A stretch of DNA of 64,000 nucleotides from Lysobacterales bacterium (GTDB lineage: Bacteria; Pseudomonadota; Gammaproteobacteria; Xanthomonadales; SZUA-36): assembly GCA_036351115.1 (NCBI GenBank), contig JAZBOL010000033.1:1404-65403 (forward strand), read 5' to 3'. The position numbers and the translations under genes are program-made. Shown here one piece after another: positions 1-15,665 of this stretch. Positions within the stretch are counted from its first letter, which is position 1, and each line of letters begins with the position of its first letter. Below the pieces are notes generated by a model, which was not told where the DNA came from, ran no database searches, and saw nothing but the letters and a program-made list of their open reading frames with translations.

Positions 1-345
1 GGGGCGTGATCCGCTTTGCTCCAGTTTGCGAACGCCTTCCTCGACATAAATCGAGCGCAGCATCTCTACCAGAGCAGGGAACGAGATCGTTCCTACCAGT
101 AGTCGGACGACTTTTCGAAGCAATAGCGGTAGGACTTCCGCTATCGATCTAGCGTCCCCAGAAAGGGTGATTTTGTTTTCCAGTGGTCTGCCCGTTTTGG
201 TTGCTCAACACATCATTCAGCCGTGTTGGCTTTTCGCTGGGCGCGCGAACAGGTGTGCGCGGCAGCGATTGCCTCGACCGAACTCCATTTCGTGCAAGCC
301 TCAGTGCCGCAGACCACCGAGGAGGTAGTACCGGTGACGCCCGAT

Positions 346-399
346 CAAAGTTCCGCTGAGATCAGGTCACCAGGGTGTGCGGCCAAAGTTCCGCTGAGA
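346..399 (+). repeat. Perfect 16-nt direct repeat CAAAGTTCCGCTGAGA x2 (346-361 and 384-399)
   Basis: Read directly. Two identical 16-mers lie 38 nt apart in a lower-GC stretch with no convincing coding frame. Confidence 0.8.
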
Positions 400-525
400 C
401 CACAACACCTGAACGACAGGTTAATCACTTAATCAAAGGCTTGCACCTGCTTACTTAGGGTCTTTCGCTCCTTCTTCCCTCAAAAAGACCGGCCCGGGCG
501 TCCGCTGTGATCACCTGGGCTGGTG

Positions 526-560
526 AAAAAAAACGGTGCCCCCACTCCATCGAAGGCACC
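526..560 (-). terminator. Rho-independent terminator of the long GGA-rich sRNA
   Basis: On the minus strand, GGTGCC (560-555) pairs with GGCACC (540-535) around a GGA-containing loop, followed by eight U (plus-strand A-run 526-533). Confidence 0.75.
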
Positions 561-860
561 AATCGCAGGGCGGGTTAAAAAGGCTCCCGCATTTGTCGAG
601 CGTCCTTGCTCCTCGACCTGGCCCCTCGGCTCGGGTCTCGTAGATCGTTGTTTCCCAACAACTAACCTGGAAATGGTTCCGCACAGGCCATCCTGGCCTC
701 GGCATGGTTGGCGCGTCCTTGCGCCTCGATCAATCCCTTGTCATTTCCATGGTCTGTTTCTTTGCCCGCCGATCCTGGCAGGACTTTCCGGGCTCGCCAT
801 TCCCTGGTGGCCCCGCCACTGCAAATTTCCGGGAAATTTCCGGAGACTCCTGTGACGTTG
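526..860 (-). ncRNA. Long GGA-rich sRNA candidate, CsrB/RsmX-like CsrA/RsmA sponge (~335 nt)
   Basis: The minus strand has 16 GGA triplets by hand count. Several sit in loops of short hairpins: GGCGC-AAGGAC-GCGCC (710-725), GGCCA-GGA-TGGCC (686-698), GTTGTT-GGGA-AACAAC (647-662) and GTCGAG-GAGCAAGGACG-CTCGAC (595-617). CCGGAAATTT occurs twice near the 5' end. It ends in a GC stem plus U8 and has a TATAGT -10 at 867-872. Overlapping track ORFs have no recognisable protein features. Confidence 0.6.
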
Positions 861-876
861 AAATAGACTATATCAG

Positions 877-898
877 CTATAGACATGCGGGTCTATAG
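877..898. promoter_or_regulatory. Perfect 8-6-8 palindrome CTATAGAC-ATGCGG-GTCTATAG, a candidate dimeric regulator site
   Basis: Read directly. It overlaps the -35/spacer of the minus-strand sRNA promoter and lies about 95 nt upstream of the plus-strand sRNA start. Confidence 0.6.
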
Positions 899-910
899 CC
901 AATTTTGTTT

Positions 911-949
911 TTAGACAAAAAAGAATTTAGACAAAAAAGTGAATAGACA
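911..949 (+). repeat. Phased direct repeats: TTAGACAAAAAAG x2 (911-923, 927-939) plus a third TAGACA (944-949)
   Basis: Read directly. TAGACA starts at 912, 928 and 944, a 16-bp phase. Further TAGAC copies lie at 864-868 and 879-883, and an inverted copy at 891-895. Confidence 0.8.
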
Positions 950-950
950 C

Positions 951-979
951 TTGTGCATTTAGCCAAAAGTGGCTATAGT
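951..979 (+). promoter_or_regulatory. Sigma70-type promoter TTGTGC-N17-TATAGT for the short GGA-rich sRNA
   Basis: -35 TTGTGC (951-956), a 17-nt spacer, and -10 TATAGT (974-979). Confidence 0.5.
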
Positions 980-985
980 GTCTTC

Positions 986-1170
986 AACGAGGGACGAAAA
1001 GGGCATGGATTGGCCCTTTTCACAGGCAAAAGGATTTGCCGGATAGCAGAAGGATCTGCGCAGCGTAAGGAAGCGCTTTGACCTCGTCGCAAGGAAGCAC
1101 TTAGCGGGTGGCGACACGTCCGCAGGGCGGCTCGGAACATCAAGGACGATGTTCCAGCCGCTTTTTTTTT
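986..1170 (+). ncRNA. Short GGA-rich sRNA candidate, RsmY/RsmZ/CsrC-like (~185 nt; 5' end inferred)
   Basis: It has 9 GGA triplets, and every predicted hairpin presents GGA in its loop. These are GAAAAGGGC-AUGGAUUG-GCCCUUUUC (996-1021), GGCAAA-AGGA-UUUGCC (1025-1040), CAGA-AGGA-UCUG (1047-1058), AGCG-UAAGGAAG-CGCU (1062-1077) and GUCGC-AAGGAAG...-GCGAC (1086-1115). The terminator loop is AAGGAC. It ends in U9. Confidence 0.7.
1127..1170 (+). terminator. Rho-independent terminator of the short GGA-rich sRNA
   Basis: GCGGCUCGGAACAUC pairs with GAUGUUCCAGCCGC around an AAGGAC loop, followed by nine U (1162-1170). Confidence 0.85.
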
Positions 1171-1284
1171 GTGCGTTCGAAACTGGCGACACCGCGGATG
1201 CGTCGTCGCGCACCGGGCGCTGCAGCACCTGCATCACGGTGAAGGTCGCCAGGTGGGGTCGGGTTTCAGTTCCGAGCGGGGAAT

Positions 1285-1800
1285 TCAATCCCGGCCGGGA
1301 TTGAGATGGCCGCAGCGAGCGCAGGTGCGGTGTTCCTCGCTGCTGAAATAGCGGTCGAAGACCGGGCCAAACTGCGATTCGATGTCCACCAGCTCGAAAT
1401 ACTCCTCGTAGAGCTTGTGGTGGCACTGTTCACAGAACCAGATGAGTCCGTCCAGTTCGCCGGGACGGCGCTGACGTTCGATCACGAGCCCGACCGTATT
1501 CGCGCCGCGCTGGGGCGAATGGGGTACACCGGAGGGCAACAGGAAAATTTCGCCCTCAGTGACGGTAACGTCCCTGACGGCCCCATCCTCGAACACGCGG
1601 AGGACCAGGTCACCCTCGACCTGGTAAAAAAACTCGGGACCCTCCTCGACGTGGAAATCCGTCCTTGCGTTCGGTCCGCCGACCACCATGCAGATGAATT
1701 CGCCGTTCTCCCAGATGACCTTGTTGCCTACCGGAGGTTTGAGCAGGTGGCGGTGTTCCTCGATCCAGGTGGCGAAATTGATCGGCGGCAGCAAAGACAT
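1285..1800 (-). CDS. nbaC: 3-hydroxyanthranilate 3,4-dioxygenase
   Basis: 171 aa. Cupin core [17 protein letters not shown]-terminal [19 protein letters not shown], and C-terminal Cys pairs FCEQCHH...CARCGH typical of bacterial HAAO. Confidence 0.9.
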
Positions 1801-1813
1801 GCTTGGTTCGGTC

Positions 1814-3214
1814 TCAGAAGTCAGCGCGGCCGGGAACGCGGGGGTAGGGGATCACGTCCCGGATGTTGCTCATGCCGGTGACATAGCTGACCAGGCGTTC
1901 GAAACCGAGACCAAAGCCGGCGTGCGGCACCGTTCCGTAGCGGCGCAGATCCAGGTACCAGTCATAGGTCTCCTTGTCGAGCTCCAGTTCGTCCATGCGG
2001 CGCTCCAGCACCTCGAGCCGCTCTTCACGCTGGGACCCGCCGATGATCTCCCCGATGCCCGGCGCGAGCACGTCCATCGCGGCCACCGTCCGCTCGTCAT
2101 CGCTCAGACGCATATAGAAAGCCTTGATCTCCGTGGGATAGTTCTTGACGATCACCGGCGCCTTGAAGTGCTGCTCGGTCAGGTAACGCTCGTGTTCGGT
2201 CTGCAAGTCGAGGCCCCACTGGGCGGGAAACTCGAACTTTTTGCCGGACGCCACGAGGATGTCGATGGCTTCCGCGTAGTCGATGCGGACGAATTCGGTG
2301 TTCAGCACGGACTCCAGCCGCGTGATGGCCTCCGGCTCGATGCGCTGGGCGAAAAACGCCATGTCGTCCGGGCATTCCTCCAGCACGGCCTTGAAGATGT
2401 ATTTGAGAAAGTCCTCGGCGAGATCGGCCAGGTCGTCCAGGTCGGCGAAGGCGATTTCCGGCTCCACCATCCAGAATTCCGCCAGGTGGCGGGCCGTGTT
2501 CGAGTTTTCCGCGCGAAACGTGGGTCCAAAGGTGTACACCTTGCTCATGGACAGGCAGTAGGCCTCCACGTTGAGCTGGCCCGACACGGTCAGGAAGGTC
2601 TCCCGGCCGAAGAAATCCTCGCTGAAGTCCACCTCGCCACTGTCGGTCCGGGGCAGGTTCGCCAGGTCCAGGGTGCTCACCCGGAACATGTGGCCGGCGC
2701 CCTCGGCGTCCGAGGCCGTGATGATCGGGGTGTTGATCCAGTAGTAGCCGCGCTCATGGTAGTAGCGGTGAATGGCCTGCGCGCAGGCGTTCCGCACCCG
2801 GGTAACGGCCCCGAAGGTGTTGGTGCGCGGACGAAGATGGCCCACGTCGCGCAGAAATTCGAAGCTGTGCTGCTTGGGTTGGATGGGATAGGTATCCGGA
2901 TCGCTCACCCAGCCCAGTACTTCCACGTCGCTGGCCTTGACCTCGAAGGCCTGGCCGCGACCGCGCGACTCCACCAGTTCCCCGGTGCAACGCACCGCGC
3001 AACCCGTGGTGAGTTTCTGCACCTCGTCGGCGTAATTGTCCAGTTCCCCCGGCGCCACGACCTGGATTGGGTGGAAACCCGAGCCATCGGCCACGTGAAT
3101 GAAGGAGAAACCGGCCTTGGAATCTCGGCGGGTTCGCACCCAGCCTTCGATCGTGACGGTATCGCCCACCGGTACTTCGCCGGCGAGGCATTGTTTGATG
3201 CTACTGGGAGACAT
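1814..3214 (-). CDS. asnS: Asparagine--tRNA ligase
   Basis: Class II aaRS motifs [29 protein letters not shown] and GFGLGFERL. The start is set at ATG 3214 (MSPSSIKQ), giving 466 aa; the track ORF begins 51 nt further upstream. Confidence 0.95.
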
Positions 3215-3322
3215 GTGGCTCTGGTTGAATCGATGACGGAAGGCCACAGATAATAAAGCACGCACCGGGGTGCGTCAGCACCCGTGCGTGATTGCTTTCA
3301 AGCACACCGCCAGGAGAGGAAC

Positions 3323-3646
3323 ATGTCCATCCAATTGACCCCCGTCGCAGCCGAGCGCGTTCACCAGTTCCTCGAGAAGGAGGGTGGGGTGGCGCTGCGC
3401 GTCGGCGTCCGCAAAACCGGGTGCTCCGGCTGGGCCTACGTGGTCGAACTGGCCAGGGACATCCCCGCGGACGACCACCTCTTCGAAGACCGGGGCGTTC
3501 GCGTGGTCGTCGATGCGACGAGCCTGCCGCTGGTGGATGGATCCACCATCGATTTCGTCACCGAGGGGCTCAACCGAACCTTCAAGTTCGACAACCCCAA
3601 CGCCACGGAAGAGTGTGGCTGTGGCGAGTCCTTCACGATCCAGTGA
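3323..3646 (+). CDS. HesB/IscA-family iron-sulfur cluster carrier protein
   Basis: 107 aa. Conserved Cys in KTGCSGWAY and C-terminal CGCGESFTIQ. SD GGAGAGG lies upstream of ATG 3323. Confidence 0.85.
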   Translation: MSIQLTPVAAERVHQFLEKEGGVALRVGVRKTGCSGWAYVVELARDIPADDHLFEDRGVRVVVDATSLPLVDGSTIDFVTEGLNRTFKFDNPNATEECGCGESFTIQ

Positions 3647-4914
3647 GCGAAGTCTCCCACGACCCCAGCCCCAATGAAATCAGTCGTGAATCCCTGGTGC
3701 AGATCCTCGAGATCATGCACCGGCTCGCTGCGCCCGAGGCCATGCCTGAGCTGCTGCGGGAAATCATGGAGGTCGGCAAGGTCGCCATCGTCGCCGATGC
3801 CGGCGTTCTCTGGCTAAAAGACCGCGCGACCGGGCGACTGCGCCGGGTTGTTCCGTCTCTCGAACAGCGAACGGAACTGGAGTTGGGGCAGGGCTGGGCC
3901 GGGCTCTGTGCCGAGTCCCGCGAGATGTCGAACATTCCCGACTGCCGCAAGGACGAACGTTACCGGTCCCATCCACTGACCCTTCCCGGCCTGGAGCCGC
4001 TGTCACTCCTCAATGTGCCGATCCTGGGCCAGGATCTCGAGCTGCTGGGGGTGATGCAGTGGCTGGGCAAGGCGCCCGGGCAGTTCGACGAGCACGATGA
4101 ATGGGTCGGCCCGGCGCTCGCAGCTCAGGCAGCGGTGGCCATCCAGCATGCCTACATGACGGACGAGCTGCTGGCCAACGCCATCCTGGCCCGCGAGGTT
4201 GCGGTGGCGCGGGAAATTCAACAGAGCACGCTGCCGGACGCCATGCCGGAGGTCCCCGGCTACGAGGTATGCGGCCGGTTTCTGCCGACCGATCACACCG
4301 GTGGAGACCTCTATGACGTGGTGTTGCTGGACGGGCGGCTGTTCCTCCTGCTGGGTGACGCCACGGGTCACGGCTTTGGCCCGGCACTCTCGGCGACCCA
4401 GCTGCAAGCCATGTTCCGTGTGGCCTTTCGACTTGGGGCGGACCTGGACGAAGCCTATCGCCACGTCAACAACCAGATGGTCGAGGATCTGCCGGATGAC
4501 CGCTTTATCACGGCATTCATGGGATTCCTCGATCCGGAGCGCCACGAAGTGGCATTTCACTCCGCGGGCCAGGGGCCCATCCTGCACTACCGGGCGGCGG
4601 AGCGTCGCTGCGAATGGCACAAACCGACGAGTTTCCCGGTCGGCATCATGGACCTCGACGGATCGGGCCGGTCCCAGCGGCTGGCCCTCGCGCCGGGCGA
4701 TATTCTGGGCCTGATCTCCGACGGCATCTACGAGTTTCCCGATGACGCCGGCAAGGGCTTCGGGGAACAGCGGGTGGCACAAGTCTTCGAACGACTCCAT
4801 GGGGCTTCGGTGCACACCCTGGCCGATCGATTGATTCAGGCGGCCGCGGCCCATGGCGGAAGCGAAGGGCAGGTGGACGACATCACGCTGGTGCTGCTTC
4901 GACGGCAGCCCTGA
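3643..4914 (+). CDS. GAF-domain PP2C (SpoIIE/RsbU-type) serine phosphatase
   Basis: N-terminal GAF-like region (ILEIMHRL...VLWLKDRATGRL). PP2C motifs GGDLYDV, LLLGDATGHG, SDGIYEF and DDITLVLL. GTG 3643 overlaps the upstream stop (GTGA) and is the only in-frame start upstream of the GAF region. Confidence 0.8.
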   Translation: MSEVSHDPSPNEISRESLVQILEIMHRLAAPEAMPELLREIMEVGKVAIVADAGVLWLKDRATGRLRRVVPSLEQRTELELGQGWAGLCAESREMSNIPDCRKDERYRSHPLTLPGLEPLSLLNVPILGQDLELLGVMQWLGKAPGQFDEHDEWVGPALAAQAAVAIQHAYMTDELLANAILAREVAVAREIQQSTLPDAMPEVPGYEVCGRFLPTDHTGGDLYDVVLLDGRLFLLLGDATGHGFGPALSATQLQAMFRVAFRLGADLDEAYRHVNNQMVEDLPDDRFITAFMGFLDPERHEVAFHSAGQGPILHYRAAERRCEWHKPTSFPVGIMDLDGSGRSQRLALAPGDILGLISDGIYEFPDDAGKGFGEQRVAQVFERLHGASVHTLADRLIQAAAAHGGSEGQVDDITLVLLRRQP

Positions 4915-14273: not shown

Positions 14274-15665
14274 ATGCAGACCATCGCCCGCTTCGATGCC
14301 GACCTGATCCAGCGCTATGGATTGAACGGCCCCCGCTACACCTCCTACCCGACGGCGGTGAGTTTCCACGAGGGTTTCGACGAAGTGGCGTATCGCCAGT
14401 ACGCCGTGAAGACCAACGAGGACTTTATTCCCAAGCCCCTGTCCCTGTACGTTCACCTGCCGTTTTGCCACTCGCTTTGCTACTACTGCGGTTGCAACAA
14501 GAAGATCACGCGGCACAGCCGCCACGGTGAGGATTATCTGTACTGGCTGGATCGGGAGATTGCCCTCCAGGGACCGCTGTTCGACCGGGATCGCGAGGTC
14601 ATGCAGCTGCACTTCGGCGGCGGAACGCCGACGTTCTTCGACGACGACCAGCTGGAGCGGCTCATGGGATGGCTGGGCCGGGATTTCCGGCTGTCGGAAT
14701 CCGAGGAACGGGAATTTTCCATCGAGATCGACCCGCGCACCGTCGATCCGGCGCGCCTGGAACGGCTGGCCGGCCTGGGGCTCAACCGGCTGAGTCTCGG
14801 GGTGCAGGATCTCGATCCCGAGGTCCAGGCCGCGGTCAATCGCATCCAGGGCGCGGAAGAAACCCTCGCGCTCATCGATGCATCGCGGCGGGCCGGCTTC
14901 GGCTCCGTGTCCATTGACCTGATCTATGGCCTGCCGAAACAGACCCTGGAGAGTTTCTCGCGGACCCTGGACACGATCATCGAGGCGGCGCCCGATCGCC
15001 TGTCGGTCTACAACTACGCGCATCTGCCGGATCTGTTCCGGTCCCAGCGGCTCATTCGCGAGGAGGACCTGCCCGAGCCGGCGGTCCGGCTCGAATTGCT
15101 CCAGTGCACCATCGAGCGCCTGGGCGCCGCAGGCTACGTCTATATCGGCATGGATCATTTTGCACTTCCGGACAACGAACTGGTGGCGGCGCGGGACACG
15201 GGCCAGCTGCAACGAAACTTCCAGGGGTATTCGACCTTTGCCGATTGTGACCTCGTGGGCCTCGGCGTCAGCGCCATCGGCAAGGTGGGCGACACCTATT
15301 CCCAGAATCGCAAGGACATCCGGTCCTGGCGCCGATCCCTCCAGGACGGCGCCCTGCCGGTCTGGCGCGGGGTTCAGCTGACCTGGGAGGATCGCCTGCG
15401 GCGGCGCGTGATCGAGCAGATCATGTGCCACGGCGCGCTCGACTTCGAATCGATCGGCGAGGCCTTCGATATCGAGTTCAGCGAACACTTCGCCCCGGAG
15501 CTCGAGGCCCTTGACCTGCTGCATCGGGACGGATTGATCGTGCTGGATGACGACGGCTTCCAGGTCACCCCGGGAGGCATGTTGCTGGTGCGCGCCATTG
15601 CCATGGTCTTCGACGAGGCCCTGCAGGCTGCCCGGGCCACGCCGAAGTTTTCGAAGGTCATTTAA
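14274..15665 (+). CDS. hemN: Oxygen-independent coproporphyrinogen III oxidase (radical SAM)
   Basis: CxxxCxxC in HLPFCHSLCYYCGC, GGGTPT, and the C-terminal HemN domain. 463 aa. Confidence 0.95.
   Translation: MQTIARFDADLIQRYGLNGPRYTSYPTAVSFHEGFDEVAYRQYAVKTNEDFIPKPLSLYVHLPFCHSLCYYCGCNKKITRHSRHGEDYLYWLDREIALQGPLFDRDREVMQLHFGGGTPTFFDDDQLERLMGWLGRDFRLSESEEREFSIEIDPRTVDPARLERLAGLGLNRLSLGVQDLDPEVQAAVNRIQGAEETLALIDASRRAGFGSVSIDLIYGLPKQTLESFSRTLDTIIEAAPDRLSVYNYAHLPDLFRSQRLIREEDLPEPAVRLELLQCTIERLGAAGYVYIGMDHFALPDNELVAARDTGQLQRNFQGYSTFADCDLVGLGVSAIGKVGDTYSQNRKDIRSWRRSLQDGALPVWRGVQLTWEDRLRRRVIEQIMCHGALDFESIGEAFDIEFSEHFAPELEALDLLHRDGLIVLDDDGFQVTPGGMLLVRAIAMVFDEALQAARATPKFSKVI

Follow-up and report, generated by a model that had tools for sequence, protein, structure and literature searches.

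CsrA/RsmA is a master post-transcriptional regulator whose activity is set by decoy small RNAs (sRNAs). In a stretch of 64,000 nucleotides (nt) from a Lysobacterales bacterium (hereafter the window), we found a region composed of two divergent non-coding units, at 985-1170 on the plus strand and at 860-526 on the minus strand. Each has conserved structures, GGA triplets in hairpin loops and an intrinsic terminator; the promoters with the operator array between them, the divergent arrangement and the linkage to a gene of the DUF6502 family (PF20112) are conserved as well. It is probable that the two units represent new families of CsrA/RsmA-titrating sRNAs, one of the size of RsmY/Z (plus strand) and the other of the size of CsrB (minus strand), co-regulated from a shared operator array that is not of the Gac type. 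A preliminary description of the region had already read the pair as CsrA/RsmA sponges, and the comparative evidence (structures, GGA in loops, terminators, control region, divergent arrangement) supports this reading.

Two families of structured RNAs with GGA in hairpin loops

Mechanical open reading frames (ORFs) span both units. They are not frame-conserved (relatives differ by indels of 1, 2 and 21-22 nt), as expected from the earlier claim that they are non-coding. The GGA counts made by hand at that time were exact: 16 on the minus strand of 526-860 vs 4 on the opposite strand, and 9 on the plus strand of 986-1170 vs 2 on the opposite strand, with 7 of the 9 in the form ANGGA within the 185 nt of the plus-strand RNA. 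These densities are moderately unusual, in the top 2% (plus unit) and 0.5% (minus unit) of same-size windows, and the GGA count has P ~0.04 against dinucleotide shuffles. The placement of the triplets is far beyond chance. In the minimum free energy (MFE) structures, hairpin loops hold 6/9 GGA of the plus-strand RNA and 8/16 of the minus-strand RNA, vs 0.6 and 1.4 in shuffles (none of 200 reached the observed values). The same is found across the families described below: 4.0 GGA per plus-strand RNA lie in hairpin loops on average vs 0.57 in shuffles (7-fold), and 2.35 per minus-strand 3' domain vs 0.43 (5-fold). The four hairpins originally quoted as examples (GGCAAA-AGGA-UUUGCC, CAGA-AGGA-UCUG, GGCGC-AAGGAC-GCGCC and GGCCA-GGA-UGGCC) are all present, and in both RNAs the hairpins and the position of GGA within their loops are conserved with compensatory changes.

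The plus-strand RNA is predicted to fold very stably (MFE -80 kcal/mol, z = -5.4). To collect homologues, we compared the loci around asnS homologues of 77-92% identity (L001, L081-L087), and searches with nhmmer revealed the plus-strand RNA in all eight and the minus-strand RNA in the three closest. From nine synteny-derived plus-strand sequences we derived a covariance model (R1), which has a single match in the window, at 984-1171 (208 bits), and none over 925 kb of asnS loci from other bacteria. A scan of metagenomes with the 21-nt invariant stretch of this RNA, its invariant hairpin, retrieved 120 contigs, which come from samples of marine, sediment and saline origin. Altogether, R1 identified 76 full-length copies (86-212 bits) in Marinihelvus fidelis, metagenome-assembled genomes (MAGs) of Xanthomonadales and marine or sediment metagenomes. 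They range from about 150 to 185 nt and carry 4-11 GGA, with a mean of 6.9 GGA per 160 nt vs 2.7 TCC.

In the alignment of the nine sequences, the loop GGA triplets form invariant columns and the stems change in a compensatory way, e.g., one stem occurs as GGCAAA/UUUGCC, GGCAG/CUGCC, GGCAC/GUGCC and CGCAA/UUGCG. In the alignment of the 76 sequences (A4), 87.5% of the cells are paired vs 41-47% with slid partners, both partners vary in 37 of 54 pairs vs 22.4 +/- 1.9 in shuffles (0/500 reach the observed value), and the covariation score is 0.224 vs 0.05-0.09 for slid pairs; this alignment was fitted to R1, a procedure that favours the structure, but the margin is nonetheless large. The terminator (helix 8 of A4) is paired in 92.9% of the cells, with both partners varying in 12 of its 17 pairs. 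The loops have the consensus AnGGAU, GAAGGA or CAnGGAnG, and that of the terminator is CAnGGAUG. They are close to the consensus RUACARGGAUGU of CsrA obtained by in vitro selection (SELEX), which is displayed within a hairpin loop. Conservation in the RNA is highest, above that of any GGA hairpin, in a hairpin lacking GGA (1104-1123). All nine synteny-derived sequences have it unchanged, apart from a single loop base that differs in L001; its lack of variation in A4 partly reflects selection, as it served as the pattern of the metagenome search. One metagenomic contig (L155) has a second, diverged copy of the RNA in tandem (2171-2318 beside 2360-2528, both on the minus strand; 32.5 vs 97 bits), and copy number thus varies within the family.

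The minus-strand RNA is predicted to be less stable than its neighbour (z = -2.5). Full-length members of its family have a median of 340 nt and, on average, 13.6 GGA vs 4.2 TCC. The 5' half diverges quickly while staying rich in GGA hairpins, and the 3' domain is recognisable throughout the family: a hairpin with an AGGA loop, a GAGC/GGAC/GAAC-ANGGAY hairpin, a GCGAAAG...CUUUCGC hairpin, the sequence CUGCGAC and a terminator with the loop CACAAGGAGUGUG. An attempt to derive this structure with RNAalifold from a MAFFT alignment recovered the terminator alone, as differences in loop length misalign the hairpins. We therefore gave the structure of the 3' domain by hand and had the sequences realigned by Infernal (model R2). 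R2 scores 78 bits in the window (517-639) and has 50 matches with E <= 0.01, every one of them upstream of a plus-strand RNA and on the opposite strand. In these sequences 87.4% of the cells are paired vs 36-49% with slid partners, both partners vary in 23 of 25 pairs, and the covariation score is 0.468 vs 0.06-0.17. The terminator stem is paired in 98.5% of the cases across the family, with covariation. The claim that both units end in intrinsic terminators (T9 at 1162-1170 on the plus strand, U8 at 526-533 on the minus strand) with GGA in the terminator loops (AAGGAC and AUGGAG) is thus confirmed.

The divergent pair is seen in 50 of the 66 loci with at least 750 nt of upstream sequence, and 287-689 nt separate the 5' end of the plus-strand RNA from the 3' end of the minus-strand RNA. 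The head-to-head arrangement around a single control region, which had been pointed out as unusual, is therefore conserved, and so is the shared region. It had also been suggested that the two units are paralogous and co-regulated. The shared, conserved control region favours the second part. The first fares less well: the two RNAs have a 5' CAACG in common, a similar layout at the 3' end and weak matches of R1 on some minus-strand RNAs, which makes paralogy possible.

Features of the sRNA region of the window
Feature	Position	Strand	Description
DUF6502 (PF20112) gene, N-terminal part	1-183	-	First ~60 codons; runs off the window
Spacer/leader from minus-strand sRNA terminator to DUF6502	184-525	-	Promoter-like block at ~447-418; three hairpins
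Predicted minus-strand sRNA, ~335 nt	526-860	-	16 GGA, 8 of them in predicted hairpin loops
Conserved 3' domain of minus-strand sRNA	517-639	-	GAGC-AAGGAC-GCUC hairpin, GCGGGAG...CCCGC hairpin, CUGCGAUU, terminator
Terminator of minus-strand sRNA	stem 561-534, U8 at 533-526	-	Loop AUGGAG; 11-bp stem; found by terminator scan
Shared control region, ~125 bp	861-984		Between the two predicted start sites
Predicted promoter of minus-strand sRNA	867-895	-	-35 TAGACC (895-890), 17-nt spacer, extended -10 TGnTATAGT (872-867)
Predicted promoter of plus-strand sRNA	951-979	+	-35-like TTGTGC (951-956), 17-nt spacer, -10 TATAGT (974-979)
Predicted plus-strand sRNA, ~185 nt	985-1170	+	Five short hairpins with GGA loops, one invariant hairpin without GGA, terminator
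Hairpin GCGGGUG-GCGACA-CGUCCGC	1104-1123	+	No GGA; invariant
Terminator of plus-strand sRNA	1126-1170	+	Stem 1126-1161, loop AAGGAC, T9 at 1162-1170

A shared operator array and a linked DUF6502 gene

The region between the two start sites is an array of repeated boxes. TAG(A/C)C occurs seven times (at 864, 880, 896, 912, 928, 944 and 960) with a spacing of exactly 16 bp, and inverted half-sites (GTCTA at 891, GGCTA at 971) complete two palindromes, TAGAC-N6-GTCTA (880-895) and TAGCC-N6-GGCTA (960-975). Comparison of 65 distinct upstream regions shows this 16-bp phasing to be conserved: the unit G(T/G)CTATAG(A/C)C is found five to six times, with up to 2.0 bits per column. Abutting TAGAC-N6-GTCTA palindromes are an equally valid description of it. 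No copy of the operator motif was found elsewhere in the 64-kb window at 0 mismatches.

The promoters are interlaced with this array. On the plus side, TAGACACTTGYG and GGCTATAnT are invariant across the family; the former contains a weak -35 element (TTGYGY), and the latter, the -10 element, is included in the last unit of the array. The consensus promoter scan did not call this promoter because its -35 matches only 3/6 positions. On the minus side the scan found a promoter with 9/12 matches and a TG before the -10, and the relatives have equivalent elements (TGATAGT / TGATAAAT). The two TATAGT -10 elements and the near-identical start contexts noticed previously are indeed there, with the -10 elements at 974-979 (plus) and 872-867 (minus) and CAACG 5-6 nt downstream in both. 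As the conserved operator array spans the region between the promoters, one DNA-binding factor very probably controls both of them together.

The DUF6502 gene lies beyond the minus-strand RNA. A tblastn search with the DUF6502 protein of M. fidelis (L083) matched the window (192-1, minus strand) and 74 other loci, and wherever the plus-strand RNA was located, a DUF6502 gene was present 500-1030 nt away, in the same direction as the minus-strand RNA, which it follows in at least 75 loci. The spacer between this RNA and the gene (184-525) is also conserved in the relatives and has 8 GGA vs 1 TCC. This raises an alternative explanation of the minus-strand unit, namely that it is the 5' leader or attenuator of the DUF6502 mRNA, responsive to CsrA in cis, which would leave the plus-strand RNA as the sole true sponge. 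The constant position and direction of the gene, the conservation of the intervening stretch with its further GGA hairpins, and the imperfect U-tracts of the terminator in some relatives (e.g., L085) would all be expected from a leader. Yet the window has an 11-bp stem followed by U8, the conservation and covariation of the terminator stem argue for a genuine end, and more than 330 nt separate the terminator from the start of the gene. Furthermore, a sigma70-like block, (G/T)TGCAA-17-TATCCT, is found facing DUF6502 in about 30 loci at a constant ~95-115 nt past the terminator, implying a separate DUF6502 transcript. Its fuller sequence is (G/T)TGCAAGYnnTTGAwAAAnnn(G/A)CTATCCT, and the copy of the window (418-447, minus strand) has a degenerate -10 (TTAACC). 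Since this promoter-like block follows the terminator, the minus-strand RNA is best seen as its own transcription unit, separate from the DUF6502 transcript, and we regard the leader explanation as unlikely. For the plus-strand RNA, a role as a leader is contradicted by the convergent gene that follows it.

The DUF6502 leader has GGA motifs of its own. Three hairpins of the spacer have CAGCGGA(A/C) loops (TCCGCTG on the plus strand at 352-358, 390-396 and 501-507), two of which belong to a direct repeat, AAAGTTCCGCTGAG (347-360 and 386-399). These hairpins are limited to the closest clade (window, L081-L086); in more distant clades the GGA motifs of the leader are GAUGGA, AGGGA and a CAGGAGA Shine-Dalgarno (SD) sequence. 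We infer from such motifs a leader that might be laid out like that of a CsrA-controlled mRNA. The start of the gene is itself peculiar. No canonical start codon precedes the N-terminus of the protein (GRPLEN..., ~170-200, minus strand) in the window, L081 and L082, which have AAAACG or AAATCG where L084 and L086 have ATGTTG, and a stretch near the start, GGGCAGACCACUGGAAAA, is conserved and contains GGA. The CUG may act as the start codon, or this conserved stretch may instead be a site of regulation.

The AlphaFold model of the DUF6502 protein (from alignment A6) has a mean predicted local distance difference test (pLDDT) score of 63, with residues 100-180 at 80-90. The best match of this low-confidence model among PDB structures, as searched with Foldseek, is HetR, a cyanobacterial transcription factor (whole length, E = 2e-4, template modelling (TM) score 0.22), followed by winged-helix regulators of the MarR type. 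The DUF6502 profile had no match among PDB sequences, and we found no literature on the family. The structural model provides a weak lead that the protein binds DNA, which would make it a candidate reader of the TAGAC array. In M. fidelis, the gene after DUF6502 (L083 8758-9762, plus strand) encodes a highly repetitive protein, with GTGIEKS repeats and then about 20 AGGGTGV repeats, and no Pfam match.

On the other side, the pair is flanked by the 3-HAO gene (1285-1800), so that it lies between this gene and DUF6502, which runs off position 1. Next comes asnS (1814-3265, minus strand), whose product matches a protein from a 'Xanthomonadales bacterium' MAG with 100% identity; the nearest named relative by asnS is M. 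fidelis (85% identity), of the NCBI family Wenzhouxiangellaceae. The order asnS, (3-HAO), gene-free gap of 0.9-2 kb, DUF6502 gene is common to L001 and L081-L087. When the first 80 asnS loci were searched by nhmmer and blastn with the window sequences, L001 was the only match, and in Wenzhouxiangella, Lysobacter and others nothing was found adjoining asnS. The succession of an RNA, a terminator and a protein gene could evoke a type III toxin-antitoxin system. We ruled this out: the minus-strand RNA lacks tandem sequence repeats, the gene stands beyond a gap of more than 330 nt with a promoter of its own, and the site is chromosomal, stable and syntenic. Beyond asnS, L081, L082 and L085 (~1000-4900) encode a partner-switching set (GAF-SpoIIE phosphatase, HATPase_c_2 kinase, STAS protein) adjoining an extracytoplasmic function (ECF) sigma factor and a PrsW protease. 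The same set seems to be present in the window from about 3284, where the ORF at 3284-3646 and those following look equivalent.

The case for CsrA titration and its alternatives

Several observations weigh against the interpretation of the RNAs as CsrA/RsmA decoys. Raw GGA density is not distinctive, as several coding stretches of the 65% GC window reach the same values, and a naive count of GGA hairpins also flags coding regions (e.g., 14531-14713, plus strand). No Rfam 15 model, those of Csr/Rsm RNAs included, reaches its gathering score anywhere in the window. The GacA/UvrY box TGTRAG-N6-CTYACA is absent from 860-985 with up to 3 mismatches allowed, and the operator units overlap the -35/-10 spacers, unlike what is found in Gac-type activation; a repressor would explain this position no less well than an activator. 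Of the five defining sequence features of CsrA-regulating sRNAs listed by Kulkarni et al. 2006, the csrB/csrC/rsmY-type upstream site was not found (PMC1488887). Finally, tblastn did not find csrA in the 64-kb window or in the 207 fetched loci, and a look-up of CsrA clusters returned no member assigned to Marinihelvus or the lineage of the window.

The first of these points concerns detection. In this GC-rich genome, long ORFs (14531-14713 on the plus strand and others) contain clusters of up to 9 matches to GGA in short hairpins, and raw counts of such hairpins are therefore not specific by themselves. GGA or [AT]GGA density and naive hairpin counts were accordingly discarded as detectors, many coding regions equalling the two units. 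Masking ORFs to reveal intergenic GGA clusters in the relatives failed too, with spurious long ORFs everywhere in such genomes. Another explanation is that the region is a GGA-rich spacer produced by chance, or a set of small protein-coding ORFs. It draws on the ORFs that span the region and on the coding regions with similar GGA counts, but it is refuted by the 76 and 50 homologues with covarying helices, by the conserved promoters and terminators and by indels that are not multiples of three; its probability is negligible.

The lack of a catalogued family comes with a partial likeness. Under permissive settings, RsmW (RF02809) matches 1054-1167 with 30.3 bits (E = 0.005, gathering score 52), and in the loci of 20 relatives the sole matches with E <= 1 are those of PrrB_RsmZ (RF00166) on the plus-strand RNA (20-21 bits, gathering score 44). 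The search of Rfam that had been proposed as a check of the earlier reading thus gave a mixed outcome: no model above threshold, but weak matches of the plus-strand RNA and its homologues limited to one clan. By these scores they resemble the Csr/Rsm clan (CL00106) alone, yet belong to no catalogued family. Likewise, four of the five features of Kulkarni et al. are present (intergenic position, density of AGGA/ARGGA on one strand, rho-independent terminator and GGA in loops; PMC1488887), and a different conserved array stands where the csrB/csrC/rsmY-type site would be. The locus therefore appears to be built like those of Csr/Rsm decoys but falls outside the known families by Rfam thresholds and by its upstream box.

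CsrA is near-universal in Gammaproteobacteria. Our search for the protein found it throughout Xanthomonadaceae, with clusters of the Xanthomonadaceae type only, and a search for literature on Wenzhouxiangella together with CsrA returned nothing. From its distribution, csrA is likely present in this lineage. The outcome of the csrA searches would also fit RNAs that partner another protein, e.g., an RNA-binding DUF6502 protein perhaps contacting the invariant GCGGGUGGCGACACGUCCGC hairpin, in which case the GGA motifs would be incidental or be read as SD-like sequences by another factor. This explanation would account for the strict linkage to DUF6502 in at least 75 loci and for the fact that the most conserved element of the plus-strand RNA lacks GGA. 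Against it, the similarities of the DUF6502 model are to regulators that bind DNA (HetR, MarR-type winged helix) rather than to RNA-binding folds, the GGA triplets are invariant as well as the odd hairpin, and the conserved loop motif CAnGGAUG fits the CsrA consensus, reportedly that of Dubey et al. in 2005. We thus consider it quite improbable. Even less so do we favour base-pairing sRNAs without any role as protein sponges, whose SD-like AGGA loops would pair with CU-rich target mRNAs or with other sRNAs. The AAGGA and AGGAG loops do have complementarity to CU-rich sequences, but we saw no extended conserved single-stranded seed in the family alignment, and the reiteration of 4-16 short loops in which GGA alone is fixed, while flanks and stems vary, is typical of protein titration; the odds of this explanation are very low.

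In the decoy interpretation, which we favour, two independent, divergent sRNAs would act as sponges for CsrA/RsmA by displaying many GGA triplets in the loops of short hairpins and of the terminators. With the loop consensus CAnGGAUG / AAGGA, they offer the combination of sequence and structure best bound by CsrA dimers. Synthesis of the RNAs would titrate CsrA away from its mRNA targets. Both would start at sigma70-type promoters embedded in the 125-bp region of 16-bp-phased TAGAC / GTCTA units, and because this is one operator region, a single DNA-binding factor would switch both RNAs. This factor would not be a reader of the canonical GacA/UvrY box, and the DUF6502 protein is a candidate for the role. 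In this mechanism, we infer that CsrA binds the RNAs, where the transcripts end, in which direction regulation works and which protein is the regulator. A bolder version can be put forward only tentatively, and we hold it to be rather doubtful: a self-contained Csr-type module without GacS/GacA, in which the DUF6502 protein, which may bind DNA in the manner of HetR or of winged-helix proteins, would polymerise on the array, and CsrA would control DUF6502 via the GGA motifs of the leader, closing a feedback loop. If true, it would provide a new family of regulators of Csr/Rsm sRNAs and a function for DUF6502.

Even in its simpler form, the decoy interpretation has implications for this widespread marine and sediment lineage, which includes M. 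fidelis: it would provide the lineage with two strong candidate decoys supported by covariation, and both can be annotated with the two covariance models (R1 and R2). The upstream logic would differ from the Gac/Uvr paradigm, with a phased operator array serving two divergent promoters and a strictly linked DUF6502 gene. The array and the linkage suggest that the Csr system would receive another kind of sensory signal here, and they provide a testable hypothesis on the function of DUF6502.

Comparison with known Csr/Rsm decoys

The plus-strand RNA is most similar to RsmY, RsmZ and RsmW of Pseudomonas, sRNAs of 110-190 nt with short hairpins presenting GGA in their loops and an intrinsic terminator, which titrate RsmA. 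Unlike them, it lacks the TGTAAG-N6-CTTACA GacA box and scores far below the gathering thresholds of their models, and it has an invariant hairpin without GGA, a GGA in the terminator loop and a second sRNA placed head-to-head. The minus-strand RNA is closer to CsrB and CsrC of Enterobacteria and Vibrio (RF00018, RF00084), both in size (~340 nt) and in GGA load (~14-16, mostly ANGGA), and the cell would have, as with CsrB/CsrC, one long and one short decoy. It differs from them by the lack of any sequence or model match and of a UvrY box. The csrB and csrC genes are unlinked, whereas the pair described here is linked and shares a control region.

In the wider Xanthomonadales, the only described RsmA-binding sRNA is RsmU of Xanthomonas campestris, and homologues of CsrB and RsmV/W/X/Y/Z are reported to be absent from Xanthomonas (PMC7694677). 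Canonical decoys are reported missing in the gammaproteobacteria related to Xanthomonadales, and RsmU is atypical: it is restricted to Xanthomonas, arises by processing of the comEA mRNA's 3' untranslated region, has 3-4 GGA and functions independently of them (PMC7694677). The RNAs described here are instead free-standing genes with predicted promoters of their own and 9-16 GGA. Their departures from the known decoys, i.e., the divergent pairing, the phased operator array and the linkage to DUF6502, are themselves conserved.

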